Below are positions 6,173-26,165 of a DNA stretch of 33,056 nt, piece after piece. The stretch is taken from positions 1 to 33,056 of IMG/VR virus record IMGVR_UViG_3300045911_000146. One strand, written 5' to 3'. The notes beneath the pieces were generated by a model, which was given only the letters and a program-made list of their open reading frames with translations, was not told where the DNA came from and searched no databases. The stretch is from a virus. The position numbers were made by a program, and so were the translations under genes. The first letter of the stretch is position 1. Each line of letters opens with the position of its first letter.

Positions 6173-7221
6173 TGGCGGCATCAGACGAAATCCTAGCAGC
6201 GTTACAAGCAGAACCAAGTTTCTTCACAAACTTTGGTAATGCGCTATCTGGCGCAGAGCTCCCTTATGCAAGAACTAATGCCCAAGCATTACTTGGGCCT
6301 TTGGCGCTGGGGCTTACTGCTGGGCTGGCTCAAGGGTACGGGAAGAAATTAGACAAACAAGCAAACTTTGACCTATTTCGACAGAACGACTTACTAAGCG
6401 CACTTGCCGGCGCCGCGGCACCACTAAATACCATTGGTCCTGTTGCTGATGGTGGTGAGTACAGTAATTTGCTCAAACAAGCCCCTTTTGCCGCGTATCA
6501 ATCAAGCGAGCCTCCCCCAAATTGGACAGTGCGGCAGGGGCAGATGGACTTGCTTAAGGCGCTTGGGGCGCAGCAGGCTCAAGAAGCAGCAGCGGCACAA
6601 CAATCTGAACGAGATTTTGAATTGACTAAAGTGCTAGCCCCTAAAGGATTTATTGTACAAGGGGGAGAAATACAGGTCGAGCCTACAGTTATGGCAGTAC
6701 TAGAAAGCGTTGCAGCAAGGAAGAAAAACGAATTTGAGCTTAGTCAATCGGCCAAAGAGGAGCTCGGCAAGTCTTTTGCAACCATACAAGAAGCTGACAC
6801 TGTTGCGAAAATGCTTGAAAATTCTAATCAGGGCTGGGGCGAGTATCAGCTAATGAAGATGTTTGGCGCAGCGGACAAAAAAGGCGTTGGCGTGGCTATG
6901 AAAAATTTAGTCGATAGACTTGCTAGGGCAAGAACTGGCGCACAACTGAATAAGGAGGAAGAGAAACTGTACGATGAGCTTGTAGGTGGAGACATTTCCG
7001 TAGATCCGAAACATGCGGCCAAACTCTTAAGAAAACTCGCAGAAGCTGAAGGGCGATATATTAACTCTAGAATAGATGCGGAAAGGTTGATCAGCGAAGG
7101 CCCAGAATCCGTGCGAGCCAAAATAGCAGAAATGGACGCAGCTAGGGGGAGGCCTGCAATGAGCAAGGCTACTAACATCGTAACGGGGCCAGATGGTCAA
7201 TTGTATGAGATTATAGACTAA
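6172..7221 (+). CDS. Putative internal virion or ejection protein (349 aa).
   Basis: TAATG overlaps at both ends. Composition is helical and A/E/K-rich. Confidence 0.6.
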   Translation: MAASDEILAALQAEPSFFTNFGNALSGAELPYARTNAQALLGPLALGLTAGLAQGYGKKLDKQANFDLFRQNDLLSALAGAAAPLNTIGPVADGGEYSNLLKQAPFAAYQSSEPPPNWTVRQGQMDLLKALGAQQAQEAAAAQQSERDFELTKVLAPKGFIVQGGEIQVEPTVMAVLESVAARKKNEFELSQSAKEELGKSFATIQEADTVAKMLENSNQGWGEYQLMKMFGAADKKGVGVAMKNLVDRLARARTGAQLNKEEEKLYDELVGGDISVDPKHAAKLLRKLAEAEGRYINSRIDAERLISEGPESVRAKIAEMDAARGRPAMSKATNIVTGPDGQLYEIID

Positions 7222-9668
7222 TGGCGCCTATACCAATAACCAGAGCAGAATATGAGGCGCGATTTGGTCGCCCGCCAGTAGTCACGCCTATACCAATAAC
7301 AAGAGCTGAATACGCTGCAAAGTTTGGCAAGGCAGAAGAGCAAGATCCAGAAAGATTGCTTAACTTCGGGCGCTCTGTTGCAAAAGGCGCTAGTAGTTTA
7401 ATTGGCATTGCTAACGATATTGGTAATCTTCCGCGCAACATTGGGGCGTCTATTGCGTCTTGGTTAACTGATGGCCCTGAAACTAATTTCTTTAGCGGCT
7501 CTCAACTAACAGATGCTTTACGGCGCTCGTATGTAGATGAGCCAGTAGCTACAGACACCACGCAACGTTATTTGAATTCGATTGGGGAGATGCTCCCTAG
7601 CGCTGCTATTCCTGGCGGTGGATTAGGGCTTAGGGTTCTATCGGCTCTTGGCGCTGGTGTGGGCAGTCAGGGGGCAAGAGACATCGGGGCGCCAGAATGG
7701 GTAGGAGCGCTCGCGGGTGGAGTTGCTCCTAATGTGGCGAGTGGCGTTGTCAAAGCTGCAACTAGGCCATTTTATCAAAGCGGGAGAGAGGTGCTTGCGG
7801 GTAAAACTTTGCTTGCCAACGCTGGGCAAGAAGGCAAGGCGCGGCTTCTTAATAATTTAGACGATGTCGCAAGCTATGCGGAAGTTGCCAATACTCCAAC
7901 CGCCGCAGCGTTTCAAACTTCTCTTAGAAAGATTCCAGGAGAAGGCAAAGACATTATGGAGCGTGCGTTAGTTGACGTTCCATCTCAGCAAGCAAAAAGT
8001 TTGCTATCTCGCCTTGCGCCTGGATCGCTTGATGATGTTTCGCAAGTAGTTAGAGGCGAAGAGTTGCAAGCAGCTATAGTGGACCAAGTTAAGAAAGCTT
8101 GGGATTCTGCGGGCGAAGCGTTTGAAGCATTGCAGCTCCCGGCAAAAGCTAAAATTTCTGTTTCTAAAGCCAGTAAGGAAATTTCTTCGCTTTATGATGA
8201 AATGTTTGGGGCTGGGGCGCTTAGCCCTGATTCTGATGTTGTCAAAATTGTCAGCAAGCTTACTTCAGAAAAAAAGTTACCATTCAAAACTATCAAGGCA
8301 CTACAAACTGAAACAGGCGCAACAATAGGGAAAATTGCTAGAACAAACTCAAAAGCTACTGAGCTCCCAGTTCTTTACAAGATAAAAGAGGCGCTGAATA
8401 CTGCTATTGACGATGCAGTAACTAGCGGAAAAGTATTAGGGCTATCTAAAGAAAAGATTGCAGCTTACAAGCTTGCGAAAGCTAATTATGCAAAGACCGG
8501 TAAAATATACGGATCGAAGCTAATTAAAGACCTTACTAAGCGCGGAGACTTTGGTAGTTTGGAGGCCGGTTCGCCTGCTTCTGCTGTGGTCCCTAAAATC
8601 ACTAGAACGCCAGAGTCGGCAAAGCAATTCATGCGTGCATTTGGCGCTGATAAAGACTTAGTAACAAAAGCTAGAGCTGGTCTTGTTGATTCTACTCTGA
8701 CTGGGCCGATTGAGTCTTGGCCTAATAAGTTTGCAAAGAAGAAAGACGTTTTCAAAGAGCTATTCGGCGATGATTATAAGGAAGTTGAGCAGCTAATCGC
8801 TACAATTGCCCGGCGTAATAACGTGGGCACTTTAGCAACCAGAGCGAGCCGTGGGCAGTCAGCTACTCAAGAATTTAGGACGCAGGCTGAGAAGCTTTTA
8901 GTTAACGGGCCTAGATCAATAATGAGGTTAATTGGTTCTAAGGTTGCAACCGGGACAGCGGTAGGAACTGGCGCACTAACTGGTAATATATTTCTTGGTC
9001 TTGGCGCTGCCGGGATGAGTCGCGTTATTAATTGGGCAGAGAATAATATAGAGCTCCTATTACAGCGAGCAATGGTCGAGCCTGAATTGCGGAAGATGTT
9101 GCTACAGAAAGCTACGATAGCGGGGCAAAGGCGCATGATGGAGCGCATAATACCATTGGCGGCGCAGATTATGACTACACAAGACAAGGATTTGGAATTG
9201 CCTGAGCCAATTAAGGAGAAGCTGCAAAAAGTCGCAGCGATTGAGCCCGCGATGACTAAAGCAGCTAGAGCCACCACAGTCCCCGAGAAACTAATCCAAG
9301 CAGTAATCAAGCAAGAGTCAGCAGGAAATCCTAGGGCGGTTTCTAATAAGGGGGCTCGTGGCCTAATGCAGTTAATGCCTGCAACGGCGGCAGAAGTTGC
9401 TAAAGAGCTTGGGATTAAAGAATACGACTTAGAAGATCCAGAGACTAACGTACGTTTTGGAGCGCATTATTTGAAAAAGCAGCTAGATAGGTTTGGTGAC
9501 ATTGAGCTGGCGCTTGCCGCCTATAATGCAGGGCCTGCGCGCGTGGCTGATTGGCAACGTAAATATGGGGAGACTTGGAGAGAAATCAGCGCGGCGATTA
9601 AGCGCGAAGATCCTAAGCACGAAACACTTACTTACGTGCCTAAAATACTAGGATATTATAAAGCATGA
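7221..9668 (+). CDS. Internal virion protein with a C-terminal lytic transglycosylase (SLT) domain (815 aa).
   Basis: The C-terminus contains IKQESAGNPRAVSNKGARGLMQLMPATA ... LAAYNAGP, which are classic SLT/goose-type motifs including the catalytic Glu. The gene is large and sits in the position of T7 gp16. Confidence 0.85.
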   Translation: MAPIPITRAEYEARFGRPPVVTPIPITRAEYAAKFGKAEEQDPERLLNFGRSVAKGASSLIGIANDIGNLPRNIGASIASWLTDGPETNFFSGSQLTDALRRSYVDEPVATDTTQRYLNSIGEMLPSAAIPGGGLGLRVLSALGAGVGSQGARDIGAPEWVGALAGGVAPNVASGVVKAATRPFYQSGREVLAGKTLLANAGQEGKARLLNNLDDVASYAEVANTPTAAAFQTSLRKIPGEGKDIMERALVDVPSQQAKSLLSRLAPGSLDDVSQVVRGEELQAAIVDQVKKAWDSAGEAFEALQLPAKAKISVSKASKEISSLYDEMFGAGALSPDSDVVKIVSKLTSEKKLPFKTIKALQTETGATIGKIARTNSKATELPVLYKIKEALNTAIDDAVTSGKVLGLSKEKIAAYKLAKANYAKTGKIYGSKLIKDLTKRGDFGSLEAGSPASAVVPKITRTPESAKQFMRAFGADKDLVTKARAGLVDSTLTGPIESWPNKFAKKKDVFKELFGDDYKEVEQLIATIARRNNVGTLATRASRGQSATQEFRTQAEKLLVNGPRSIMRLIGSKVATGTAVGTGALTGNIFLGLGAAGMSRVINWAENNIELLLQRAMVEPELRKMLLQKATIAGQRRMMERIIPLAAQIMTTQDKDLELPEPIKEKLQKVAAIEPAMTKAARATTVPEKLIQAVIKQESAGNPRAVSNKGARGLMQLMPATAAEVAKELGIKEYDLEDPETNVRFGAHYLKKQLDRFGDIELALAAYNAGPARVADWQRKYGETWREISAAIKREDPKHETLTYVPKILGYYKA

Positions 9669-12460: not shown

Positions 12461-14029
12461 TTATATATTAGGAAGTTCCAAATTATCTTCTTCCTCTTTT
12501 TCAAACCATTCTAAAATCTTAGTTACCCGGTAATACTTACCTTCTTTCTTAGTCTGGATTCGAAGCGGGCGTTTAAGCTCATATTTACGCTCCAGGGCTT
12601 CGTCGGCGGTTTCAGGGGCTGGTAGCGAGCCCCCAAGTGCAAGCCATTTCTGAACAGCCATTTGAGCCGCAAACCCACCGTGTTCAAAGCATAAGTAATC
12701 AGAGATTCTTTCGTCACCTTCCAGGAAGTAATCAACCCGAAACGATGGCGGCTTGCCTATTTTGTGATGAACAAAAAATTGCACATGTTCCAACCGGAAA
12801 GATGGCGCAACAGCGGTGGTCACTGGGGCAACATCAGCCTGTGCGGTATACTTGCTTTCGACCGGAAACGGGGCATTGCAGCCCGGGCACTCCATGATGC
12901 GAATGGGCACAACGCAACCGCATTCATCACAAGATTTTAAAGGCTGCAAAGAAAATTCAGGGGCTAATGGATTTTTATAACTCACTTCAATGCAGTCGAT
13001 AGGGCCGTGACGCTTAATGTTGCCCCCAAAATCCGCTACCAAACAGTTTTTCTTATCGGGAGCAATGCGTAATCCGCGTCCTACCATTTGCACATATAAG
13101 CCAACCGATTGAGTGGCGCGAAGGAGCACAACACAATCAATGTCAGGGAAATCAAATCCAGTAGTCAAAATATCACAGTTAGTCAAATATTTATTTGTAC
13201 CGTCTTTAAATCGATTGACTATTCTGTCACGTTCGAACGTTAGCAATCCGCCGTGTACGCACTCGCCCCCAATTTCAGTCGCGATTCGAAGCGCGTGATT
13301 TACGCCGCTACAAAATATCAATACATGTTTTCGGTCTTTAGTAATGCGCTTAATTTCCTCACAGTGCTCTTCGATTTGAAGCATTGCCTCGGCTTCTAGC
13401 TGCTCAAGGTTATAATCAAACCCGCGTAAGCTTATGTTTTTAGTGTTTATTTGTGCGGATTGCGGGACAGAAATCAAAGGAGACAGAAATTCTTGAGCAA
13501 TCAAGTGCTCGATTTTGATTTCATATGCAACTTCGCTAAACAGCGTTCCTTCTCCGATCAAGAACCCATGATCCATCCTGTATGGTGTTGCGGTCAGCCC
13601 AATAATTCTACAATTCCGCTGATTTGAGAAAAGCTTGGCGTACATTGACTCGGGCTTGCCGCTAATCAAATGCGCTTCATCAACTATAATCAAATCCCAA
13701 GTAACTAGGCTCCTGTAAATCGATTGGATATTTGCAAAAGTAACTTGTCTGATGGTCTTTTGACCTAATCCGGCAGACATTACGCCGATGGGCATTTTGG
13801 TGAGTTCTTGGAATTTCCTAGCATTTTGCTCAACTATTTCTTTCCTATGCGTAACAATTAACACTTTGAAGTGCGGGCGCTTCTCTAGTACTTGGCGCAC
13901 TATTTCTGCGGCTAAAATTGATTTTCCTGAACCAGTTGGGCACACGATTAACGGGCGTGCTTTTGGATTCGCGCGAAATGTTGCCCATAGCCCAGCGATG
14001 GCATCGGTTTGGTATTCTCTTAATTGCAT
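12461..14029 (-). CDS. Superfamily 2 DEAD/DEAH-box DNA helicase with a C-terminal zinc ribbon (522 aa).
   Basis: LREYQ (Q-motif-like), Walker A CPTGSGKS, DEAH box IIVDEAH, motif III LTATP, and VQMVGRGLR (motif VI). The Cys4 element is CDECGCVVPIRIMECPGC. Confidence 0.9.
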   Translation of the reverse strand: MQLREYQTDAIAGLWATFRANPKARPLIVCPTGSGKSILAAEIVRQVLEKRPHFKVLIVTHRKEIVEQNARKFQELTKMPIGVMSAGLGQKTIRQVTFANIQSIYRSLVTWDLIIVDEAHLISGKPESMYAKLFSNQRNCRIIGLTATPYRMDHGFLIGEGTLFSEVAYEIKIEHLIAQEFLSPLISVPQSAQINTKNISLRGFDYNLEQLEAEAMLQIEEHCEEIKRITKDRKHVLIFCSGVNHALRIATEIGGECVHGGLLTFERDRIVNRFKDGTNKYLTNCDILTTGFDFPDIDCVVLLRATQSVGLYVQMVGRGLRIAPDKKNCLVADFGGNIKRHGPIDCIEVSYKNPLAPEFSLQPLKSCDECGCVVPIRIMECPGCNAPFPVESKYTAQADVAPVTTAVAPSFRLEHVQFFVHHKIGKPPSFRVDYFLEGDERISDYLCFEHGGFAAQMAVQKWLALGGSLPAPETADEALERKYELKRPLRIQTKKEGKYYRVTKILEWFEKEEEDNLELPNI

Positions 14030-14564: not shown

Positions 14565-15374
14565 TTATTCGGTAAGTTTCTCTAAGTCCGCGGCCTGCTT
14601 ATCAGCTCGCACACTTTCGAGATTTGGTTTTTTGGCGCGGCTTGCGCGTTTCTCTTTTATTGCAGCAGCCACTGCGTCCCAAGCAAGCGGGAGCTCGTGC
14701 GGTAGGCCGTAGCGATTTTTCGCATCATAGGCAGGCCGCTCTTCAAGGTATAGAATGCGGTCGCCGCTAGAGCTTGCCTTAGTGATTTGCTGTCCAAACT
14801 TGCCGTCTTTTGTTTTGATGGTCTTGTCAAATGTTGCAAAGCCTAAAATGTCGCACCACTCAGCTACTAACGCGGCAGCTTTGGCTTGCAAGTCAAGCTG
14901 ATATCTATCATACCCTTCGCGCTCTGGGTCTTCGAAGCGCTTAATTTGTGAATGCGCTATTGCGACAATTAACATTTTTTTGTGCGTGTTGAGATAAGAC
15001 AATGCTTCCAGAAATTCGCGCCAGAGCTTTTCAGCTTGTGAGTACCCGCGGCCGAACGGGATATCACCAATAGCCTTAACGTTTGCTTCTTTGCAAACTT
15101 TATCAAACGCTAGTTTCTCGGCCCAATCAAGCGAATCAATTGCAAGCGTTTTATATGGGTGCTCGTTGTTTGCCAGGAAATCAACTGCCTTGTGTAGGTC
15201 TCCCCATTCTGTAGCAAGCTCAAACGCATCAACTTCTAACGCATCTAACCCTCGCTCTGTCTGTATAAAGATGGGCGACGGGCAATCAGCGGCGAAGGTG
15301 GATTTGCCCACGCCGTGCACACCGTACAGGACTATGCGCGGAGGTTGGGATATTTTTGTTTGTATGATTTTCAT
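14565..15374 (-). CDS. AAA_24 / Sak4-like RecA-fold ATPase (269 aa).
   Basis: Walker A YGVHGVGKST near the N-terminus. SD AGGAG lies 8 nt upstream of the start. It shows the classic AAA_24, DUF669, helicase, VRR-NUC gene order. Confidence 0.8.
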   Translation of the reverse strand: MKIIQTKISQPPRIVLYGVHGVGKSTFAADCPSPIFIQTERGLDALEVDAFELATEWGDLHKAVDFLANNEHPYKTLAIDSLDWAEKLAFDKVCKEANVKAIGDIPFGRGYSQAEKLWREFLEALSYLNTHKKMLIVAIAHSQIKRFEDPEREGYDRYQLDLQAKAAALVAEWCDILGFATFDKTIKTKDGKFGQQITKASSSGDRILYLEERPAYDAKNRYGLPHELPLAWDAVAAAIKEKRASRAKKPNLESVRADKQAADLEKLTE

Positions 15375-15757: not shown

Positions 15758-15976
15758 ATGAAAATAAAAACCATAGATGACTTGTTTGATCTGGCACAAG
15801 GAAGCGTGCAACTAGCGGCTAAACTAAACTTGCATCAAACCACGGTCATTCAGTGGCGTAAGATTGGAATACCAATCAAATATTGGTCGAAAATCATGGA
15901 CTTTTTGAAAGTTTCTGTTGAAGACCTTTATAGAGTGTCGGAGCGCGCACTGAATGAAGCCCGCAACGCAAAATAA
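15758..15976 (+). CDS. Cro/YdaS-like helix-turn-helix DNA-binding protein (72 aa).
   Basis: SD AGAGGGGGG precedes the ATG. The HTH segment is GSVQLAAKLNLHQTTVIQWRKIGIP. Confidence 0.7.
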   Translation: MKIKTIDDLFDLAQGSVQLAAKLNLHQTTVIQWRKIGIPIKYWSKIMDFLKVSVEDLYRVSERALNEARNAK

Positions 15977-17195
15977 GTCTAGCACCTTGCTAGCTTTGTG
16001 CCCCGGCACTACTGGCGATTTAGCTCGAGCAATCGACAGCACGTTCAGAGTTACCGATCCAATGCTATCCCTTGCTGTCGCCTTCTCTGTAGGAGGCGCG
16101 GTGCGTTCCGGTCGCATCAAGTATAAGGGATGCCATGCTAATGCGTATCACGCGATCATTGGCCCGACTGGGATTGGTAAAACAGTCGCGCAGAACTATG
16201 CTTTTACCGCGTTAATAGAAGCGGGATTAGGTGATATGCTTGCGGGGGACTTTACCAGCGAAGCCGCGCTTATTTCTAGGCTTTGTACTCATCCGATTAC
16301 TCTTGCGACATTTGATGAGCTTGGGCTTGCGCTTCAGAACATGGCCGAAGATCGCGGGGGGAATAGACGCGAAGTCTTTGCATGCATGCTTAGAGCTTTT
16401 TCAGCGACTAACGGGGTGTTGCTCGGCAAGCACTACTCTCCGCGCACCGGGGCAAGTACGCAAATGTCCGCAGCGGCTCCCCTGCTTTCTATCGTGGGCT
16501 CAAGCACTCCTAGCAGCTTTTTCGCGGGGATGACTGCAAGGGCAGCGACGGATGGTTTGCTGGGAAGATTTTTTTGCTGGTTTGCGGGCAATTTAGACCC
16601 GACTGCAAAAGAGCGTAATAGAAACGAATTCATTTTACCTGTTGGGGTTGTTGCTGAATATACAGGATTTGCAACATTAAAATCTGGCTTAACAAGGCCG
16701 GAAACGCAAGAAGCAAGATTTGCTGATGAACCAACAGTTGCTTTTATTTTGGAATCGCTTGAGCGAGATATTAGGCTTGAGCAGAATGAAGCGCGTAGGG
16801 CGTTGATTGCACGCGGGCCTGAGCTCTTTCTCAAGCTCGCTTTAGCATTGTGTGATGAGCATTTTCATATTAGCGCTGAAGCGGTTTGCTTCGCTCAAGA
16901 GCTCCTTGAGTATTTATACACCGAGGCATGGGATAAGTGTGGAGATGCGATTGGGAGGTCGAAGCAAGAAGATCAGCAGTTGCGCTTGAGAGAGAAAATT
17001 TTGCAGGTGATACCAATAGGGCGAGAGAACGCGATTACAAGAGGAGCCATAACACGCAGGACGCAATCGATAAAAAGTGCGGACAGGAAAAGTATCTTGC
17101 AAGATTTGATAGAAAGTGATGATGTAATTGAACATGAGTACTACGTCGACGAAATTTCTAGCCGCAAAGCGTCTGTCTTCTATAGACCAGGGTAA
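15954..17195 (+). CDS. DUF3987-like P-loop NTPase, putative replication initiator or helicase-loader type protein (413 aa).
   Basis: Walker A IIGPTGIGKT is preceded by the YHAIIG context typical of DUF3987. A Walker B-like motif LATFDELG is present. It lies next to an iteron-rich region. Confidence 0.65.
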   Translation: MKPATQNKSSTLLALCPGTTGDLARAIDSTFRVTDPMLSLAVAFSVGGAVRSGRIKYKGCHANAYHAIIGPTGIGKTVAQNYAFTALIEAGLGDMLAGDFTSEAALISRLCTHPITLATFDELGLALQNMAEDRGGNRREVFACMLRAFSATNGVLLGKHYSPRTGASTQMSAAAPLLSIVGSSTPSSFFAGMTARAATDGLLGRFFCWFAGNLDPTAKERNRNEFILPVGVVAEYTGFATLKSGLTRPETQEARFADEPTVAFILESLERDIRLEQNEARRALIARGPELFLKLALALCDEHFHISAEAVCFAQELLEYLYTEAWDKCGDAIGRSKQEDQQLRLREKILQVIPIGRENAITRGAITRRTQSIKSADRKSILQDLIESDDVIEHEYYVDEISSRKASVFYRPG

Positions 17196-17208: not shown

Positions 17209-17520
<312 letters not shown>

Positions 17521-17564: not shown

Positions 17565-17726
17565 CTATTGCGTTTCAGCTAGTGGGTATAGCCTGGGTGG
17601 CTGCCAGGCAATTTCATAGCCACCTAGGGCTACAGCGGCTATAATAAGCGCAAAGATAAGCCCTAGCGCGGCTAAATTATACGCAATCCATCCCAAAAGC
17701 TTTTCAAATGAAAACATCGTTTGCAT
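17565..17726 (-). CDS. Small single-pass membrane protein (53 aa).
   Basis: ATG 17726 lies 7 nt after AGGAGGGG. The TM helix is WIAYNLAALGLIFALIIAAVALGG. The start is 1 nt after the upstream TAA. Confidence 0.65.
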   Translation of the reverse strand: MQTMFSFEKLLGWIAYNLAALGLIFALIIAAVALGGYEIAWQPPRLYPLAETQ

Positions 17727-18091: not shown

Positions 18092-18307
18092 CACATGACT
18101 AACTCTTATAAACTCGTAATCGCGGACTTTGTCCGCGACACTTACGAACACTGGCCCTCCCTCACACTCGAGGGAGCAATAGCTTACGATAAAATAAGCG
18201 CGGCTATTTTAGAATTGCCACCGCTTAGATCAATCGCACCAGATATTTTTGATGCGACAATACAAACACTTTTGTATACGGAGACCGTCTATGCCGTCGA
18301 AAGGTAA
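18092..18307 (+). CDS. Hypothetical protein (71 aa).
   Basis: ORF 18041..18307. The internal ATG 18092 (MTNSYKLV...) is preferred if the candidate promoter is real. The start is uncertain. Confidence 0.5.
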   Translation, partial: HMTNSYKLVIADFVRDTYEHWPSLTLEGAIAYDKISAAILELPPLRSIAPDIFDATIQTLLYTETVYAVER

Positions 18308-18680
18308 AGACTGCTGTAAAATCTGCGAGCGCCCAATCGGACGCGAAGACACTTGCAATTATTTAACTTGCGTAGTTTGCGAAGAATCAGTCTGTGAACG
18401 TTGCTGCCTCGATTTCAGCGAAGCAATCCTTGAAATCGACGGCGCTGAAGTTTGCGCAGACTGTCAGTGTAAACCACGCATCGATGACATCCGGCCATAC
18501 CTCCGCAGCGGAGAGCATTTTGTCGTTTCACGCGATAAGCGCGATAAATGTTGGTTCGGCGTGCGCCGATGCGTCGAAAGCGACGGCATGATCCGCGGGT
18601 GGTTACTCGCGCACAATGGGCGCGTGTGGGCGTGCGAATCACCGCTCGAAGTAGAAGCAGCAATAATGAGCATGTTTTAA
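18291..18680 (+). CDS. Cys-rich zinc-finger protein (129 aa).
   Basis: ATG 18291 lies 6 nt after GGAGA. Paired Cys motifs are CCKICERP...CNYLTCVVCEESVCERCC...CADCQC. Confidence 0.65.
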   Translation: MPSKGKDCCKICERPIGREDTCNYLTCVVCEESVCERCCLDFSEAILEIDGAEVCADCQCKPRIDDIRPYLRSGEHFVVSRDKRDKCWFGVRRCVESDGMIRGWLLAHNGRVWACESPLEVEAAIMSMF

Positions 18681-18694
18681 CGGTCGACGAGCAC

Positions 18695-18979
18695 CGAGTT
18701 CAAAAATGAAGGCCCTTATTCTGCGAACAGCATATGATCACTTGCGCTTGCGATCAGGCTCGTGGTCGGGGTCGTGGTCGCGGTCGGGAGTGTGGTCGCG
18801 GTCGGGGTCGCGGTCGGGGGCGTGGTCGCGGTCGTGGTCGTGGTCGCGGTCGTGGTCGCGGTCGGGGTCGTGGTCGCGGTCGGGAGTGTGGTCGCGGTCG
18901 TGGGCGGGGTCGTGGTCGCGGTCAGGGGCGTGCTCGCGGTCAGGCAACAAAACTCGATGAAAACGGTCGACGAGCACCG
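18695..18979 (+). repeat. Hexamer-array element A: a conserved 5' flank, 33 copies of GGTCGN (array 18746-18943), and a conserved 3' flank.
   Basis: The 5' flank CGAGTTCAAAAATGAAGGCCCTTATTCTGCGAACAGCATATGA and the 3' flank GCGGTCAGGCAACAAAACTCGATGAAAAC are shared with element B. The array is open in all six frames. Candidate ORFs are 18706..18960, 18734..18982 and 18762..18989. Confidence 0.9.
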
Positions 18980-19011
18980 TAAAATGTAAGAAAAAAACAA
19001 AGGATGAACAT

Positions 19012-19353
19012 ATGAGTGAATGTATAGACAACTTAAAACTAAAAGAGATTAAAGAATTGCTTTCTATTGTCGGAGGATCAGCAGCAAAGACAGAGTTGCC
19101 CTTTAAAATCGGGGAAAAGGTTTTTATCCGAACCGTTACTCATTATCTCACCGGGCAAATTAAAGACATAGTTGGAAAGTTTTTAGTACTCAAAGACGCC
19201 GCATGGATAGCAGACAGTGGAAGGTTCACGCAGGCAATCGAGGAGGGGAGATTAAATGAGGTAGAGCCGGTAACCTCAGACGTGCGTGTGAATACAGATT
19301 CAATTGTAGATTGTTATCAGTGGGCTTTTGAATTGCCGCGAGTTCAAAAATGA
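19012..19353 (+). CDS. Hypothetical protein (113 aa).
   Basis: ATG is preceded by AAAGGA. The composition looks like an ordinary globular protein. Its last 15 nt form the 5' end of element B. Confidence 0.7.
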   Translation: MSECIDNLKLKEIKELLSIVGGSAAKTELPFKIGEKVFIRTVTHYLTGQIKDIVGKFLVLKDAAWIADSGRFTQAIEEGRLNEVEPVTSDVRVNTDSIVDCYQWAFELPRVQK

Positions 19354-19638
19354 AGGCCCTTATTCTGCGAACAGCATATGACCACTTGTGCTCGCGGTCA
19401 GGCTCGCAATCGGGGGCGTGGTCGCGGTCGCAGTTGTGGTCGTGGTCGGGGTCGTGGTCGCGGTCGGGGGCGTGGTCGGGGTCAGGGGCGTGGTCGCGGT
19501 CGCAGTCGTGGTCGTGGTCGGCGTCGTGGTCGCGGTCGCGGTCGTGGTCGGGGGCGTGGTCGCGGTCGCGGTCGTGGTCGCGGTCAGGCTCGCAGTCGCG
19601 GTCAGGCAACAAAACTCGATGAAAACAGTCGAGCATCG
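19339..19638 (+). repeat. Hexamer-array element B: a paralogue of element A with 36 copies of GGTCGN (array 19390-19605).
   Basis: It has the same flanks as element A. Candidate ORFs are 19350..19622 (ATGA-coupled to the upstream gene), 19378..19647 and 19388..19669. Confidence 0.9.
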
Positions 19639-19678
19639 CATTATTGAATTAAGACGCAAAAAGCAGTGATGAGAATTT

Positions 19679-20302
19679 ATGAAAACATTTACAATCGACC
19701 ACATCCGCTCATGGAACCCTTGCTACAATCTAATCAAACACCTGCCCGAAAGGTGGTCTGGTACGGTAATAGACATACTCAAGCACAGCACCATCCCGCC
19801 CGAAGATAAAATCTCGGTCATATGTCGAAATGAATTAATCAACGCAAAAACCTTGCGATCGTTTGCGGTCGAATGCGCTCGGCAGGTGCAGCATCTAATG
19901 AAAGACAAACGAAGTGTTGCTGCGCTAGACGTATCTGAAAGATACACAAACGGGCAAGCGACTGATAACGAGCTTGTTGCTGCTTGTGAGGCTGCTCATG
20001 CCGCTGCTTGTAACGCTACCGGGGCTGCCGCTTGGGAGGCCGCCTGGGCTGCTGCTTGGGCCACCGCCTTGGCTGCCGCTCAGGAAGCCGCTCAGGAAGC
20101 CGCTCAGGCTGCCGCTTGGGCTGCCGCTCGGGAAGCCGTTCAGGCGGCTAAGGCCGCCGCCCAGGCTGCCAATTGGCCTGCTAGGGGTGTTAGGGAGGCG
20201 TCTAAAGTTGCTGGGGCTATTGCTATGGCTCTTGTTAGGGAGGCCCAGATCGCAAAATTAATTCAGATGGTGGAAGAGGGAGATGAAAGCCTACTGAATT
20301 AA
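19679..20302 (+). CDS. Ala/Trp-repeat protein (207 aa) with a globular N-domain and an AAWxAA-type helical repeat region.
   Basis: Contains GAAAWEAAWAAAWATALAAAQEAAQEAAQAAAWAAAREAVQAAKAAAQAA. It resembles widespread uncharacterised bacterial and phage proteins with (A-A-x-x) periodic Ala repeats. Confidence 0.65.
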   Translation: MKTFTIDHIRSWNPCYNLIKHLPERWSGTVIDILKHSTIPPEDKISVICRNELINAKTLRSFAVECARQVQHLMKDKRSVAALDVSERYTNGQATDNELVAACEAAHAAACNATGAAAWEAAWAAAWATALAAAQEAAQEAAQAAAWAAAREAVQAAKAAAQAANWPARGVREASKVAGAIAMALVREAQIAKLIQMVEEGDESLLN

Positions 20303-22159: not shown

Positions 22160-22502
22160 AGGGACTTCACGATTTAAAGCTACAGATGAGCAGCGTAAGC
22201 TCGTTGAGCAAATGGCCGCATTTGGCGTATCACAAGAGCAAATTGCCGGTGTGTTAGGCGTTTCAGTGGATACTATTCAGCGGCACTTTAGAAAAGAAAT
22301 TGATACGGCAGCAACGCGCGCGAATACAAGAGTTGCAGGCGCTTTATACAAAAACGCCATGGAAGGTAACGTGTCTGCGCAAATATTCTGGATGAAGACT
22401 CGGGGGAAATGGAGAGAAGTGCATGACGTTGAAGTCAGCGGAAAAGACGGAAGCGGAATCATCCCTTCAATTACCATCGGGGTTAATAAATCTTCAGTTT
22501 AA
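22149..22502 (+). CDS. terS: Terminase small subunit (117 aa).
   Basis: HTH segment VSQEQIAGVLGVSVDTIQRHF, followed by AQIFWMKTRGKWRE, a typical small-terminase motif. It lies immediately upstream of the large subunit. Confidence 0.8.
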   Translation: MPTKGTSRFKATDEQRKLVEQMAAFGVSQEQIAGVLGVSVDTIQRHFRKEIDTAATRANTRVAGALYKNAMEGNVSAQIFWMKTRGKWREVHDVEVSGKDGSGIIPSITIGVNKSSV

Positions 22503-23967
22503 CCTACATCCACAGCAAGCCAATTTACTAAACACCACAGCGACCGAAATACTATTCGGCGGCGCAGCAGGAGGCGGCAAAAGCTTTTTGACGCGCGTTT
22601 TGTCAATCCTTTGGTGCGTTGAAATCCCCGGGCTAAACGTATTCTTGTTTCGTCGATTATATGACGACTTAATCAAGAATCATGTGGAAGGCCCGACAGG
22701 TTACCGCGCAATGCTGGCCCCTTGGCTTAATGCCAAGCATCCACAGTCTCCGCTACTCGCCGGGCGCGTGTGCGAAATGTTGCAGACCGAGATTCGATTC
22801 TGGAACGGTAGCAAGATTTTCCTTTGTCATTTGCAGCATCAAAAAGATATTACTAAATACTATGGTCCTGAATTCCATGTGCTGTTCATTGAAGAAGCGA
22901 CGCAGTTCACTGAGTTCATGATCCGCTTTTTGCGCGGTCGCTTGCGTATCCCTGACGCTTTAAAAATACCAGATAAATACAAGAAGCCTGAAGCTGAATG
23001 GCGCGACCCTAAAGTGCCTGATTACTATTTCCCCCGAGCTATCTATACGAGCAACCCCGGGGGAGTAGGGCATGCGTATTTAAAGCGCTCGTTTATTACC
23101 GGGTTCAAGCCGCTGCAATTACACAAGGCGCCCGATGACGACGGTGGGCACACTAGGATGTACGTACCAGCCAAAGTAGACGACAACCCAAGCGTGAACC
23201 GTGAGCAGGTCAAAGAGCAATTGCGCGGGCTACCACCCGCACTGGTAAATGCGCTTTTATTGGGAGATTGGAACGCTGTTGTAGGCGCGTTCTTCCCGGA
23301 GCCTGGTCCGCAGCACGTTGTCCCTAATTTTCAGATCCCTGATTACTGGCCCAGGTTTATGAGTATGGACTGGGGCGCGTGCGGAGAGGGAGACCCTTTT
23401 GCCATTGGCTGGTGGACTGTAAGCGACGGCACATATTTACCGAGGGGGAGTTTAATTTGCTATCGTCGATGGTATGGGCGCGGACTGCCTAAAGTTACTG
23501 CGCACATGGTGGCGCTCGGCATAAAAGAAAGAGAGCAAGGCGAGAAGATTGTAGCTAGACACGCCGGTGGTGACATCCTAGAAAAACGAGGGACCGGCCC
23601 AAGCTTATTTGAGATCTTTGCAGGCGAGGGTATTCACTTTCAGCGCGCCGATATGCGCCGCATAAATGGCTGGGCACAGGTCAGAGAGAGATTAGTAGGC
23701 AAAAATGGCAAGCCATTGCTCTATTGGACAGAAGAAACTTCAGAAAGTTTAGAATTGCTAGGGAATTTACAACATGACATAAATAACCCTAGCGATATTG
23801 CGCCTGGCGACGATCATGAAGCGGACATGATTCGTTACATGTGCATGTCAAGACCATTCACCCGCAATATGCCAGCAGCTAAATTGCCTCAAGCGGAAAG
23901 ATTTAAAATGCCCACAATGGATGAAGCATGGAGTCAGAGAGAGCAGAGGAACAACCCAAGGCGCTAG
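22423..23967 (+). CDS. terL: Terminase large subunit (514 aa).
   Basis: Walker A FGGAAGGGKSF and Walker B VLFIEEA. The C-terminal nuclease region contains MSMDWG and DDHEADM. ATG follows GGAGAGAAG. It overlaps terS by 80 nt, with no alternative start in frame. Confidence 0.9.
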   Translation: MTLKSAEKTEAESSLQLPSGLINLQFNLHPQQANLLNTTATEILFGGAAGGGKSFLTRVLSILWCVEIPGLNVFLFRRLYDDLIKNHVEGPTGYRAMLAPWLNAKHPQSPLLAGRVCEMLQTEIRFWNGSKIFLCHLQHQKDITKYYGPEFHVLFIEEATQFTEFMIRFLRGRLRIPDALKIPDKYKKPEAEWRDPKVPDYYFPRAIYTSNPGGVGHAYLKRSFITGFKPLQLHKAPDDDGGHTRMYVPAKVDDNPSVNREQVKEQLRGLPPALVNALLLGDWNAVVGAFFPEPGPQHVVPNFQIPDYWPRFMSMDWGACGEGDPFAIGWWTVSDGTYLPRGSLICYRRWYGRGLPKVTAHMVALGIKEREQGEKIVARHAGGDILEKRGTGPSLFEIFAGEGIHFQRADMRRINGWAQVRERLVGKNGKPLLYWTEETSESLELLGNLQHDINNPSDIAPGDDHEADMIRYMCMSRPFTRNMPAAKLPQAERFKMPTMDEAWSQREQRNNPRR

Positions 23968-26165
23968 ACACTAAAGCATTAGCGCTTAAGTGGTTAAAAG
24001 AAATTGATAGAGTTCAGCGCTCTAAAGAGCAAAAAGCATTTGAGAATATCGGCGAGCGCATTGTCAAAAAGTACCGCAACGCTGACGCGCTACAAGTTTA
24101 CAGCTCCAACGTAGGCAATAGCACGCGCGTTATGCTTAATGCGCTTTGGACCGTCGTTGAAATCATGAAGCCTGTGCTTTATGCGCGAATGCCTCAAATC
24201 GTAGTAGAAAGAGAATTTAAAGACAAAGACGACGTTGCGCGAGTAGCTGCAATGGGCGCAGAGCGTTGTGTAGGGTATATGCTGCGCAGTCAGCAGAATC
24301 AGTTTAATTATGCAGTTAAAGGAGCAGTATTAGACAGACTGCTGTCAGGGCGCGGGCAAGTGTGGCCACGGTTTGAGTACAAAGAGGAAGAGCCCTACAG
24401 CGAGAAAGTCTGTATCAGCCCGCTCAATTGGCTTGATTACTTAGAGTCCCCGGCGCGCAATCAATATGAAATTAGATGGCGCGCGAAACGCGCGCACATG
24501 AGCAGGCAAGCCTTAATCAATCGCTTTGGCGAAAAGATTGGAAACGCTGTTAAGTTTGAGACTGAGGATAAGCGCGGCAAAGATGCTGATGACATAGAGC
24601 ATCAAGCGGAAGTTTGGGAGATTTGGGACAAAGACACTAAGCGCGTGTATTGGGTATCAAAAGGCTACAAGGACGATTTGCTAGATTGGAAGGATGACCC
24701 GCTGCGCTTAAAAGAATTCTTCCCGTGCCCTATTCCGTTGCTTGCTACCACTGTTACTGACACCACCTATCCAACTCCAGACTTTAAGATATATGAAAAG
24801 CTCGCTGACGAAGTTGATTATATTACTAAGCGCATTGCTTCCATTGTAGATTGCATACGAGTTGTCGGCGTTACTGCCGCAAGCCTGAACGCAGACCTAA
24901 AGAACATGCTTAAGCTTAACGATGGCGACCTGTGGCCCATTGAGCAATGGGTTACATTCTCAGAACGCGGCGGATTAAGAGGCGCAGTCGATTGGTTCCC
25001 GTTTGAACAAGCAGCTAACGTATTGCCAACGTTGATTCAGTATCAACAACATTGCATAAGCTTAATTTTTGAACAGATTGTTGGATTGCCTGACATTGTT
25101 AGGGGGTTTAGCGATCCAAACGAAACTGCCGCAGCGCAACAAAAGAAATCACACTGGACTGTTGTCCGAGTCGCCGAAAAGCAGCAAGACGTTCAGCGAT
25201 TTTGCCGCGATATTGTAGGCATTACCGCTGAGATAATGTTTGAGCCTGGCCTGTTTAGTGATGAAACACTGTCGCTGATGGCGGGGGCCGAACAATTTAG
25301 CCCAGAAGATCAAGCGCTTTGGCCTGAAGCTTTAGCGATGTTGCGTAATGATAGATTGCGCACATTCCGCGTAGATATTGAGACTGATTCAACTATTGCG
25401 GCGGATCAAGAATTAGATAAGCAATCACGCACCGAATTCATAGGCGCAATCACGCAGTTATTCGGGCAAGTGCAGTCTGTTGTTCAGTTCTCTCCTGAAC
25501 TAATGAAACCAATGCTTGAGTCCGCGTTATTTGCCGCTAGAGCATTCAAAGCAGGGCGCGCATTAGAGGGGGCATTCGAGCAGGCGATTGACAGGATAGT
25601 AGAACAGCAAAAGCAACCGCCTCCGCCCCCGCCTCCAGACTATGAAATGCAGAAGCTTCAGCTTGAATCGCAGGGGTTGCAGCTAAAGGCGCAAGAGGCG
25701 CAAGGCAAAGCGCAGCTTGAAATGCAAAAGTTGCAGCTTGAAGCAGAAGATAAGCGCGCAAAAATTGATATTGAAATGCAAAAGATGCAGCTCGAAATGC
25801 GGCGCATCATGTCCGACGAGCAGCGCGATAGTTTTGATGCGCGATTAGAAGAGTTTAAAGAACAATTCAACCAGTGGGCTGAATCGCAGCGTCTACAATT
25901 GCAGCAAATGACAGAATCGCAGCGCTTGGAGCTTGAAAAGGCGGCGACTATACTGCAAGAGCGGGAAAAGCTAATTGAAGAAGCGCGGCTAAAACAAGAG
26001 CAAATGTTGCGCAGTGCCGAGCTACTTGCCGCGAAACAACCAGCGCAACAAGCGGCGCCGAATATTACTATTGTCAATGACGATGGCGAGAAGGAAGTAT
26101 TATTATCCAGAGATGCAATGGGCGGACTAGTTGGTAGAACTAGGCGGGTAAAGCGTGACGTATAA
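23928..26165 (+). CDS. Portal protein with an extended C-terminal coiled coil (745 aa).
   Basis: Assigned by size and by position directly after terL. The last roughly 186 aa start with P7 and are heptad-like (EMQKLQLE repeated 3 times). The start codon is uncertain by a few codons. Confidence 0.8.
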   Translation: MESERAEEQPKALDTKALALKWLKEIDRVQRSKEQKAFENIGERIVKKYRNADALQVYSSNVGNSTRVMLNALWTVVEIMKPVLYARMPQIVVEREFKDKDDVARVAAMGAERCVGYMLRSQQNQFNYAVKGAVLDRLLSGRGQVWPRFEYKEEEPYSEKVCISPLNWLDYLESPARNQYEIRWRAKRAHMSRQALINRFGEKIGNAVKFETEDKRGKDADDIEHQAEVWEIWDKDTKRVYWVSKGYKDDLLDWKDDPLRLKEFFPCPIPLLATTVTDTTYPTPDFKIYEKLADEVDYITKRIASIVDCIRVVGVTAASLNADLKNMLKLNDGDLWPIEQWVTFSERGGLRGAVDWFPFEQAANVLPTLIQYQQHCISLIFEQIVGLPDIVRGFSDPNETAAAQQKKSHWTVVRVAEKQQDVQRFCRDIVGITAEIMFEPGLFSDETLSLMAGAEQFSPEDQALWPEALAMLRNDRLRTFRVDIETDSTIAADQELDKQSRTEFIGAITQLFGQVQSVVQFSPELMKPMLESALFAARAFKAGRALEGAFEQAIDRIVEQQKQPPPPPPPDYEMQKLQLESQGLQLKAQEAQGKAQLEMQKLQLEAEDKRAKIDIEMQKMQLEMRRIMSDEQRDSFDARLEEFKEQFNQWAESQRLQLQQMTESQRLELEKAATILQEREKLIEEARLKQEQMLRSAELLAAKQPAQQAAPNITIVNDDGEKEVLLSRDAMGGLVGRTRRVKRDV

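Follow-up and report, generated by a model that had tools for sequence, protein, structure and literature searches.

Among eukaryotic proteins of the Sm/LSm type, SmB, SmD1, SmD3 and LSm4 carry tails rich in Arg and Gly, and Scd6/LSm14 carries RGG sequences. Short helical peptides bind the LSm domains in Edc3-Dcp2 and in LSM14-4E-T. The C9orf72 repeat is a hexanucleotide that gives rise to dipeptide-repeat proteins, poly-Gly-Arg among them. These are points of comparison for a locus in the virus record IMGVR_UViG_3300045911_000146 of IMG/VR, which was analysed over its whole length of 33,056 nucleotides (nt), referred to here as the window. The locus consists of two hexamer-repeat elements, A and B, on either side of a gene for a small protein with a predicted Sm-like fold. 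Taken as a whole, it is probably best explained as a pair of paralogous microprotein genes, both read in the second of three open frames (frame 2) as Ser-[Trp/Arg/Gly] repeats, that form a module with the Sm-like gene.

The resemblance to the eukaryotic proteins lies in the parts. Here, too, an Sm-like beta-barrel goes together with a basic, Gly-containing low-complexity repeat, and the array of the window even spells (GR)n in the frame of the Sm-like gene. The arrangement differs in that the repeat is a separate polypeptide, in another frame, built of Ser-[W/R/G] rather than RG or RGG and with Trp at about one third of the variable (X) positions; the phage pair is known from its genes and a predicted fold. 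Phages have LSm-like proteins of their own, of which GoF, MotB.1 and Frd.2 of T4 have been described as early proteins (PMC12152347). These proteins and the bacterial Sm-like Rof and Hfq are likewise small, have an Sm-like fold and are thought to act on RNA or Rho. They show no detectable sequence relationship to the Sm-like protein of the window, and abstracts on them, that of PMC12152347 included, mention no coupled dipeptide-repeat microprotein.

Two repeat elements

Elements A and B are paralogues of about 290 nt each, in which near-identical flanks (5' CGAGTTCAAAAATGAAGGCCCTTATTCTGCGAACAGCATATGA and 3' GGTCAGGCAACAAAACTCGATGAAAAC) enclose about 30-35 GGTCGN hexamers apiece. Every insertion or deletion between them is a multiple of 6, and the periods that Tandem Repeats Finder (TRF) assigns to the arrays (18, 30, 36 and 48) are multiples of the hexamer. 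All three forward frames are open across both arrays, with starts and stops conserved between A and B: frame 1 reads Gly-Arg (18734-18982 and 19378-19647), frame 3 reads Val-X from GTG starts (18762-18989 and 19388-19669), and frame 2 yields genes A and B (Table 1). The variable base of the hexamer is never A (array A, C9 T7 G6; array B, C10 T5 G5). The ATG of B overlaps the stop of the upstream gene as ATGA (19350-19353), and the same ATGA or GTGA coupling is found at many homologous loci. A note made earlier from the letters of this DNA (the original prediction) had described both elements with their flanks and open frames, the missing A and the overlap at B. TRF and the list of open reading frames (ORFs) bear out the first of these, and the other two hold as well.

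Read in frame 2, each microprotein would have a mass of about 9-10 kDa, about 25-30 Ser-X dipeptides and a net charge of about +12 to +14, with neither a hydrophobic segment nor a signal peptide in its sequence. TCG makes up 24 of the 27 Ser codons of array A, which also has 10 Arg (CGG), 11 Trp and 10 Gly codons, and 27 of the 31 in array B, which has 10 Arg (CGG), 12 Trp and 9 Gly. Neither the frame-1 nor the frame-2 ORF is present in the protein collection from the window's own gene calls, and the genes appear unannotated.

Element A appears to have arisen by duplication of a B-like junction, because the last five codons of the Sm-like gene are kept ahead of its ATG (the translation ..HRVQK* precedes A, as ..LPRVQK* precedes B) and because an 18-nt direct repeat, AACGGTCGACGAGCACCG, brackets it. 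This repeat, of which a diverged version (AACAGTCGAGCATCGC) follows the 3' flank of B at about 19624-19640, looks like the footprint of the recombination that duplicated the element. At both junctions the sequence CAA-AAA-UGA overlaps the AUG (18701-18709 and 19345-19353). Slippage of tRNA-Lys by -1 at this sequence, which would fuse the Sm-like protein to the microprotein, is possible in the window but was set aside, as the run of A occurs in about one third of the leaders and is not conserved.

One frame is conserved among relatives

Related loci were sampled in two ways, by DNA pattern and by way of the neighbouring gene. In IMG/VR, (GGTCGN)x6 occurs in at least 120 viral contigs (L001-L120), a recurrence that places this type of array far from chance. 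A second sample (L121-L162) was found through the Sm-like protein and is unbiased as to hexamer. The 5' flank has no exact match in IMG/VR, and a protein database searched with the frame-2 product returned 318 candidates with shared words, none with an expect value (E) <= 1e-3, true matches probably having been lost to low-complexity correction.

Starts and stops were counted, among the matches listed, for the 118 arrays flanked by sequence at both ends. In 92 of the 118 an ATG upstream leads into the array in frame 2 without an intervening stop, compared with 23 for the Gly-Arg frame and 28 for the Val-X frame; beyond the array, the stop comes after a median of 3.7, 24.5 and 47.3 codons, respectively. 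Typically the Ser-[W/R/G] frame opens 12-20 codons before the array and closes near its end. The Gly-Arg frame is usually closed by a stop 9-40 nt before the array, and at several loci the interval from the Sm-like gene to the array contains two stops in this frame.

The leader between ATG and array is kept as protein, with the pattern M-N-x-A-[ILV]-[LA]-R-[AT]-G-[FY]-[DE] (in the window, MKALILRTAYDHL), and its DNA varies at synonymous sites. Across a set of 40 distinct class-I leaders the mean entropy at codon positions 1, 2 and 3 is 0.93, 0.80 and 1.72 bits, a test made partly circular by the choice of leaders with a protein pattern. Switching between six-fold-degenerate codons does not share this circularity: Arg is written both as CGN and as AGR. 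Gly is written with all four of its codons.

The hexamer itself changes between lineages. Arrays are (TCA-NGG)n in AT-rich phages (L127, L128 and L138) and even (AGC-NGG)n in L130 and L131, the closest relatives of the window, in which the Sm-like protein is 77% and 73% identical to that of the window and its gene is followed by an ATGA-coupled ORF, MNGTILRLGFENS(RS/GS/WS)n. Frame 2 reads Ser-[W/R/G] in all of these variants, whereas the Gly-Arg frame turns into Gly-His/Gln with TCA or Ala-Gly with AGC, and the third forward frame into Val-[K/M/R] or [Q/R/L]-Glu. Among L121-L162 the serine codons are TCG (626), TCA (193) and AGC (133), and the X residues are R (333), W (278) and G (272), with about 9% others. 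Interconversion of TCN and AGY serine codons by single steps passes through a non-serine codon; there being no direct single-step route between them, the feature that these loci share is the amino acid. A homologous coding sequence of 43 aa, MNAAIIRAGLDASWSWSWSWSRSRSWSWSGSRSGSRSRSGSGS, is annotated in frame 2 in GenBank record MW202573.1. Minus-strand ORFs over the arrays were rejected as candidates, since by hand translation their dipeptides change with hexamer type and the Arg-Pro frame of the window has stops.

From this comparison of sequences, A and B are very probably protein-coding genes read in frame 2. The original prediction had offered microproteins in three frames as candidates, and it is the Ser-[W/R/G] candidate that is conserved in relatives. 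Its observation that a near-invariant GGT is at odds with plain poly-Gly-Arg coding has a simple explanation, in that the T is the first base of the frame-2 serine codon. Two of its other proposals are not supported: a phage analogue of the C9orf72 poly-Gly-Arg product would require a frame that reads otherwise in relatives and seldom has a usable ATG, and a constraint purely at the level of nucleic acid does not fit a hexamer that changes (GGTCGN, GGTCAN, AGCNGG) while the dipeptide is kept.

Composition and turnover of the arrays

Over the whole ORFs, the codon differences between A and B comprise 14 synonymous and 15 non-synonymous changes in frame 1, 3 and 20 in frame 2, and 3 and 24 in frame 3, in agreement with the earlier statement that the array differences look synonymous in frame 1 only. 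The NGG codon box encodes Trp, Arg, Arg and Gly. Such a count misleads here because the base that varies opens an NGG codon, and W, R and G are all accepted.

Unit statistics were taken from 128 arrays with at least 15 units each (median length 25.5 units). The mean shares of W, R and G are 0.30, 0.34 and 0.30, and their order is statistically random. Within an array a single codon dominates for Arg, with a share of 0.96 (CGG in 91 arrays, AGG in 28), as one does for Ser, with a share of 0.98. The ordinary genes of the window use TCG for 13% of Ser codons and CGG for 9% of Arg codons, and AGC is common in them. Even paralogues and close relatives have markedly different arrays. By all appearances the array is composed of three hexamer unit types (Ser-Trp, Ser-Arg and Ser-Gly) and owes its evolution mainly to the duplication and loss of units rather than to point mutation. 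Turnover of units would account for the foreign codon usage, for the near-invariant GG, for the absence of A at N in this lineage and for much of the invariance of the third-position G. A fourth type of unit, Ser-Met (ATG) or Ser-Val (GTG), in which the X codon has a different second base but again G in the third position, occurs in L134 (4325-4462), L147, L149 and L159.

The Sm-like partner

The protein encoded between the two elements was modelled by AlphaFold2 with a predicted local distance difference test (pLDDT) score of 88. In Foldseek searches of the PDB nearly all of the top 50 matches are Sm or LSm chains (e.g. 1i8f and 9dtr_g; E 4e-4 to 4.5e-3), and among its viral structure matches are DUF6948 proteins and, from a Gordonia phage, an "RNA binding protein". 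An Sm/LSm-like fold, which in this class is a strongly bent, five-stranded beta-barrel with a helix usually ahead of it, is confidently predicted from the model. Scans of PHROGs, NCBIfam and PADLOC gave no match.

The family to which the protein belongs is large. A word search found 174 clusters at 90% identity, and an exhaustive profile search found 2052 clusters at 50% identity, 1512 of them with E <= 1e-10. By hhalign (95%, E 2.8e-8) the first subfamily has a divergent homologue in a second one (ending ...WYVQTSAIESFGLGK), which pairs with the other leader class, M-x-R-S-S-K-Q-K-Y-R.

Four polypeptides of 211-258 aa (P0121, P0122, P0126 and P0250) have two Sm-like domains in tandem, an arrangement that would be compatible with ring-type oligomers of fewer chains. 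Natural fusions of an Sm-like domain to a repeat tail were sought as well and none was convincing; P0220 and P0042 extend into arrays in the wrong frame, apparently through errors of gene calling.

A two-gene module and its distribution

Of the 120 loci listed that were found by hexamer pattern alone, 93 could be evaluated for neighbours, and in 74 of these an Sm-like gene adjoins the array on the same strand. It is the sole recurrent neighbour among the loci examined, present at 107 of them and usually upstream, with any other protein cluster occurring at most 4 times, and the repeat ORF usually overlaps its stop. Genes downstream of arrays are not conserved. Like that of the window, the Sm-like gene has an array on either side at other loci too (e.g. 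L127 and L138), and elsewhere three to five repeat ORFs follow one another in tandem (L009, L012, L091 and L148). Functional pairing of the microprotein with the Sm-like protein is fairly likely. At a few loci the neighbours are RecT-like, Sak4-like, exonuclease, methyltransferase or DUF1376-like genes, which by sequence reading alone have the look of replication and recombination functions.

Matches in species-representative genomes lie mostly on contigs of ~35 kb that were binned into metagenome-assembled genomes, with uncertain host assignment. A few are in large contigs of Solirubrobacterales (L148, 2.3 Mb), Acidimicrobiia (L144), Chlorobiota (L150), Elusimicrobiota and Gammaproteobacteria; these loci are taken to be prophages. 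The module of Sm-like protein and repeat microprotein appears widespread, almost only in uncultured phages and prophages. A full-text search of the literature turned up neither the Ser-[W/R/G] repeat microproteins nor their module with an Sm-like gene.

Some contigs end inside or at arrays (L132, L133, L134, L141, L142, L157 and several of L001-L120), for example 70-140 nt past the Sm-like gene. This suggests that the repeats break short-read assemblies and that such genes may be under-represented or truncated in databases.

Evidence to the contrary

Several findings weigh against reading A and B as frame-2 genes with an Sm-like partner. The frame-2 ATGs of the window have a weak Shine-Dalgarno sequence, just GAG at about -12, where relatives have AGGAG; the earlier note had remarked on the lack of one at the ATGs of all frames, and no good one is present. 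Gene A, moreover, has no coupled gene ahead of it. X codons nearly always end in G (in L121-L162, 270 of the 272 Gly codons are GGG), which protein-level selection alone does not require; this invariance is attributed to unit turnover, which does not fully explain it, and a constraint at the level of mRNA or translation may contribute.

The partner raises points of its own. Its template modelling scores from Foldseek are 0.45-0.5 when normalised to the query and mostly 0.45-0.8 when normalised to the target, a resemblance at the level of fold only. Pfam models, those for LSM included, were run against the Sm-like protein of the window and 55 relatives and none passes, and a profile search against the sequences of solved structures found no match to it. 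The correspondence between leader class and Sm-like subfamily could reflect merely shared ancestry. For the microprotein, AlphaFold prediction from the single sequence has low confidence (pLDDT 63) and shows a short helix at the N terminus along with three long strands, a model weakly compatible with strands that would carry Ser on one face and W/R/G on the other. Finally, a search for cultured phages with the module found none, and in GenBank one uncultured record, MW202573.1, has it.

Alternative explanations

The microprotein might act alone, as a membrane-active or toxic Trp/Arg peptide or as a fast-evolving decoy or anti-defence factor, with the Sm-like protein as its chaperone, its antidote or an unrelated neighbour. 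Its charge and its Trp and Arg content resemble those of Trp/Arg antimicrobial peptides, arrays diverge between paralogues and close relatives as they would in an arms race, and gene A has no coupled partner upstream. Set against this, the microprotein has neither signal peptide nor hydrophobic segment, its gene is linked very tightly and in conserved orientation to the Sm-like gene, and neither PADLOC nor the other family scans gave a match pointing to such a role, which is considered improbable.

It is also rather unlikely that frame 2 is translated for the sake of its codons and the peptide is irrelevant. By this account the repeat would tune or sense translation and couple the Sm-like gene to the gene downstream. 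TCG, CGG, GGG and TGG codons are indeed uncommon in the phage, third-position G is near invariant, and coupling of the repeat ORF upstream is matched in some loci by coupling downstream: its stop overlaps the next ATG in L121 and lies within the next Shine-Dalgarno sequence in L135. However, a spacer would not need an N-terminal motif that is kept as amino acids and that differs between the two Sm-like subfamilies. W:R:G is near 1:1:1 whether Arg is CGG or AGG, AGC replaces TCG in some lineages even though it is common in the window's ordinary genes, and the downstream genes to be coupled are not conserved.

Translation of frame 1, alone or in addition to frame 2, is very unlikely. It would produce poly(Gly-Arg) and, by read-through of the UGA ahead of B, an Sm-(GR)n protein resembling SmD1, the Gly-Arg frame of B being in phase with gene 19012-19353; eukaryotic SmD1, SmD3 and SmB do carry GR tails. 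Frame 1 is open with an ATG in both elements, and it is the frame in which the A/B array differences are mostly synonymous. That said, the Gly-Arg product is lost wherever serine is TCA or AGC, and relatives rarely have an ATG in this frame and typically have one or even two stops close upstream. The frame-1 ATG of the window appears, by hand inference, to stem from the Tyr-Asp codons of the leader (TAT GAY) and to be absent where the leader has Phe.

A role of the arrays as nucleic acid, be it as DNA iterons, a G-rich structure or a structured RNA, with incidental ORFs, is highly improbable: the hexamer is strikingly uniform, with a GG dinucleotide in all variants, its codon usage is atypical for the phage and the RNA of B folds better than shuffled sequence (z -3.4), but the RNA of A reaches a z of just -1.7, Rfam has no match in the window, the arrays always lie in fixed phase within an ORF of conserved start and nearby stop, and the hexamer differs between loci with homologous flanking genes where the frame-2 dipeptide and N-terminal peptide are kept.

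A possible mechanism

If genes A and B encode Ser-[W/R/G] microproteins that work with the Sm-like protein, a mechanism can be sketched. Through the ATGA coupling, the microprotein of B and the Sm-like protein would probably be made together. The conserved N-terminal motif would dock the microprotein on the Sm-like protein, presumably on a ring; Edc3-Dcp2 and LSM14-4E-T are both among the Foldseek matches of this protein. The basic, aromatic, low-complexity tail could then make multivalent contacts with RNA or single-stranded DNA (ssDNA), take part in condensate-type contacts or self-associate, early in infection. Such an arrangement would amount to a split version of the eukaryotic Sm/LSm domain with its Arg/Gly-rich tail.

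A nucleic-acid-directed role for the pair is possible and is put forward tentatively. The full proposal is equally speculative, and doubtful as it stands: tailed phages from hosts in many bacterial phyla would carry a presumably ring-forming Sm-like protein with one or more detachable Ser-[Trp/Arg/Gly] tails, docked by their N termini, that make cation-pi and charge contacts to RNA or ssDNA and possibly form condensates. This would be a viral, split-gene counterpart of the RG/RGG-tailed Sm/LSm proteins, in which shuffling within the NGG box could re-tune the tail fast.

Comparison with other repeat systems

The microprotein shares with the RS domains of SR splicing proteins an alternation of Ser with Arg in a low-complexity sequence, and the known RS cases are related to nucleic acids or condensates. 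Unlike SR proteins, it is 84-90 aa long, has no RNA recognition motif (RRM) or other domain match, and has Arg at ~34% of X positions, and no kinase recurs nearby. Lacking both the RRM and a dedicated kinase, it is not placed among the SR proteins or RS domains. The Ser-Asp repeats of staphylococcal Clf/Sdr adhesins are likewise long Ser-X arrays that come from short DNA repeats with gain and loss of units; their X is acidic, however, and they are domains of large, cell-wall-anchored proteins with glycosyltransferases. In scans with Pfam, PHROGs, NCBIfam and PADLOC, models of these adhesins were the sole family matches to the microproteins, weak (E 0.008-0.03, far below cut-offs) and driven by composition only.

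As in C9orf72, a hexanucleotide repeat is open in all frames, one of them Gly-Arg. Here, by contrast, one frame has a conserved ATG and stop, its product is not poly-Gly-Arg, and no evidence of multi-frame translation was seen. Membership of this class was rejected, the Gly-Arg frame being neither maintained nor provided with a usable start (ATG in 23 of 118 arrays, compared with 92 of 118 for frame 2).

Three other classes were tried and rejected. The unit is not conserved as DNA among relatives, as that of an iteron or other DNA-level repeat would be. A diversity-generating retroelement variable region does not fit the lack of A at the variable base, where A and B differ among T, C and G, and no enzyme recurs as a neighbour, in the course of scans that included none aimed at reverse transcriptase. 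A precursor of a ribosomally synthesized and post-translationally modified peptide would share the leader-like motif, but the sole conserved neighbour is the ~110-aa Sm-like protein, with no modifying enzymes. The known systems compared here are analogies, not memberships; of the defining features tested, the one found is the Sm-like fold of the partner.

Other features of the window

Family scans of the proteins encoded in the window mark it as the genome of a tailed phage. Elements A and B sit among small genes, with the replication module on one side and the packaging module on the other (Table 1). An Rfam scan at the gathering threshold and a tRNA scan of the whole window gave no match.

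Table 1. Positions of the repeat elements, the Sm-like gene and other features of the window
Feature	Position	Strand	Evidence
Gene A, predicted repeat microprotein, frame 2, 84 aa: MKALILRTAYDHL + Ser-X repeats + SGNKTR*	18706..18960	+	ORF list, translation; frame by homologous loci
Hexamer array A, (GGTCGN)n, read TCG-NGG = Ser-[Trp/Arg/Gly]	18760..18941	+	TRF, codon counts
Gene B, predicted repeat microprotein, frame 2, 90 aa: MKALILRTAYDHL + Ser-X repeats + SGNKTR*; ATGA-coupled to Sm-like gene	19350..19622	+	ORF list, translation
Hexamer array B	19392..19603	+	TRF, codon counts
Gene for protein of predicted Sm/LSm-like fold, 113 aa; stop overlaps ATG of B	19012..19353	+	AlphaFold2, Foldseek, linkage to arrays
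CGAGTTCAAAAATGA upstream of A, copy of final codons of Sm-like gene (R-V-Q-K-stop)	18695..18709	+	A/B alignment, frame translation
18-nt direct repeat AACGGTCGACGAGCACCG, left copy, flanks A	18679..18696	+	Read from sequence
18-nt direct repeat AACGGTCGACGAGCACCG, right copy	18962..18979	+	Read from sequence
Virion protein with transglycosylase domain	7221-9668		Family scans
Helicase	12461-14029	minus	Family scans
Sak4-like protein	14565-15374	minus	Family scans
Primase-like protein	15954-17195		Family scans
Large terminase	22423-23967		Family scans
Portal	23928-26165		Family scans

The gene directly downstream of B (19679-20302) encodes a protein of 207 aa that belongs to PHROG 18326, where its function is given as unknown. 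It holds a 12-nt repeat array of its own at 20022-20145, GCYGCCGCTNNN, which translates into Ala-rich units (AAAWEAAWAAAW and AAAQEAAQEA, for example). When the 2.4-kb region was used as a query against GenBank phages, the result was low-complexity matches to this adjoining Ala-rich gene only and no close relative; the array at 20022-20145 is the source of the sole "distant" phage DNA matches, to a hypothetical protein of Mycobacterium phage Maddy2 and to a tail fiber of Curvibacter phage P26059A.

Upstream of A, gene 18249-18680 encodes a protein of 143 aa without a family match. Its many Cys pairs (CCKICE..., CVVCEE..C..CC, CADCQC) suggest that it binds zinc. In MW202573.1 a "zinc finger domain protein" is annotated directly downstream of the repeat ORF. 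An AT-rich intergenic region that follows the primase-like gene (17444-17520) contains (ATT)16 and TTAATATTA repeats. Several sigma-70-like promoter matches lie close by (at 17375-17484 and 17617-17645), and the region may, from its sequence, be a promoter or an origin.

Significance

The frame that is conserved differs from the one that a pairwise count of synonymous and non-synonymous changes would pick, a caution for short-repeat ORFs in which a variable first codon base toggles between accepted residues. There is a practical side as well, in that repeat genes may often go missing where contigs end, or be annotated in the wrong frame. For phage biology, the analysis brings to light a large and mostly unannotated family of Sm-like proteins together with a microprotein partner that looks obligate and is unusual in composition. 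If the Sm-like protein and the repeat tail do act as a pair, they would offer a tractable bacterial-virus system for the way in which low-complexity tails of Arg, Trp, Ser and Gly modulate RNA-binding proteins of the Sm type.

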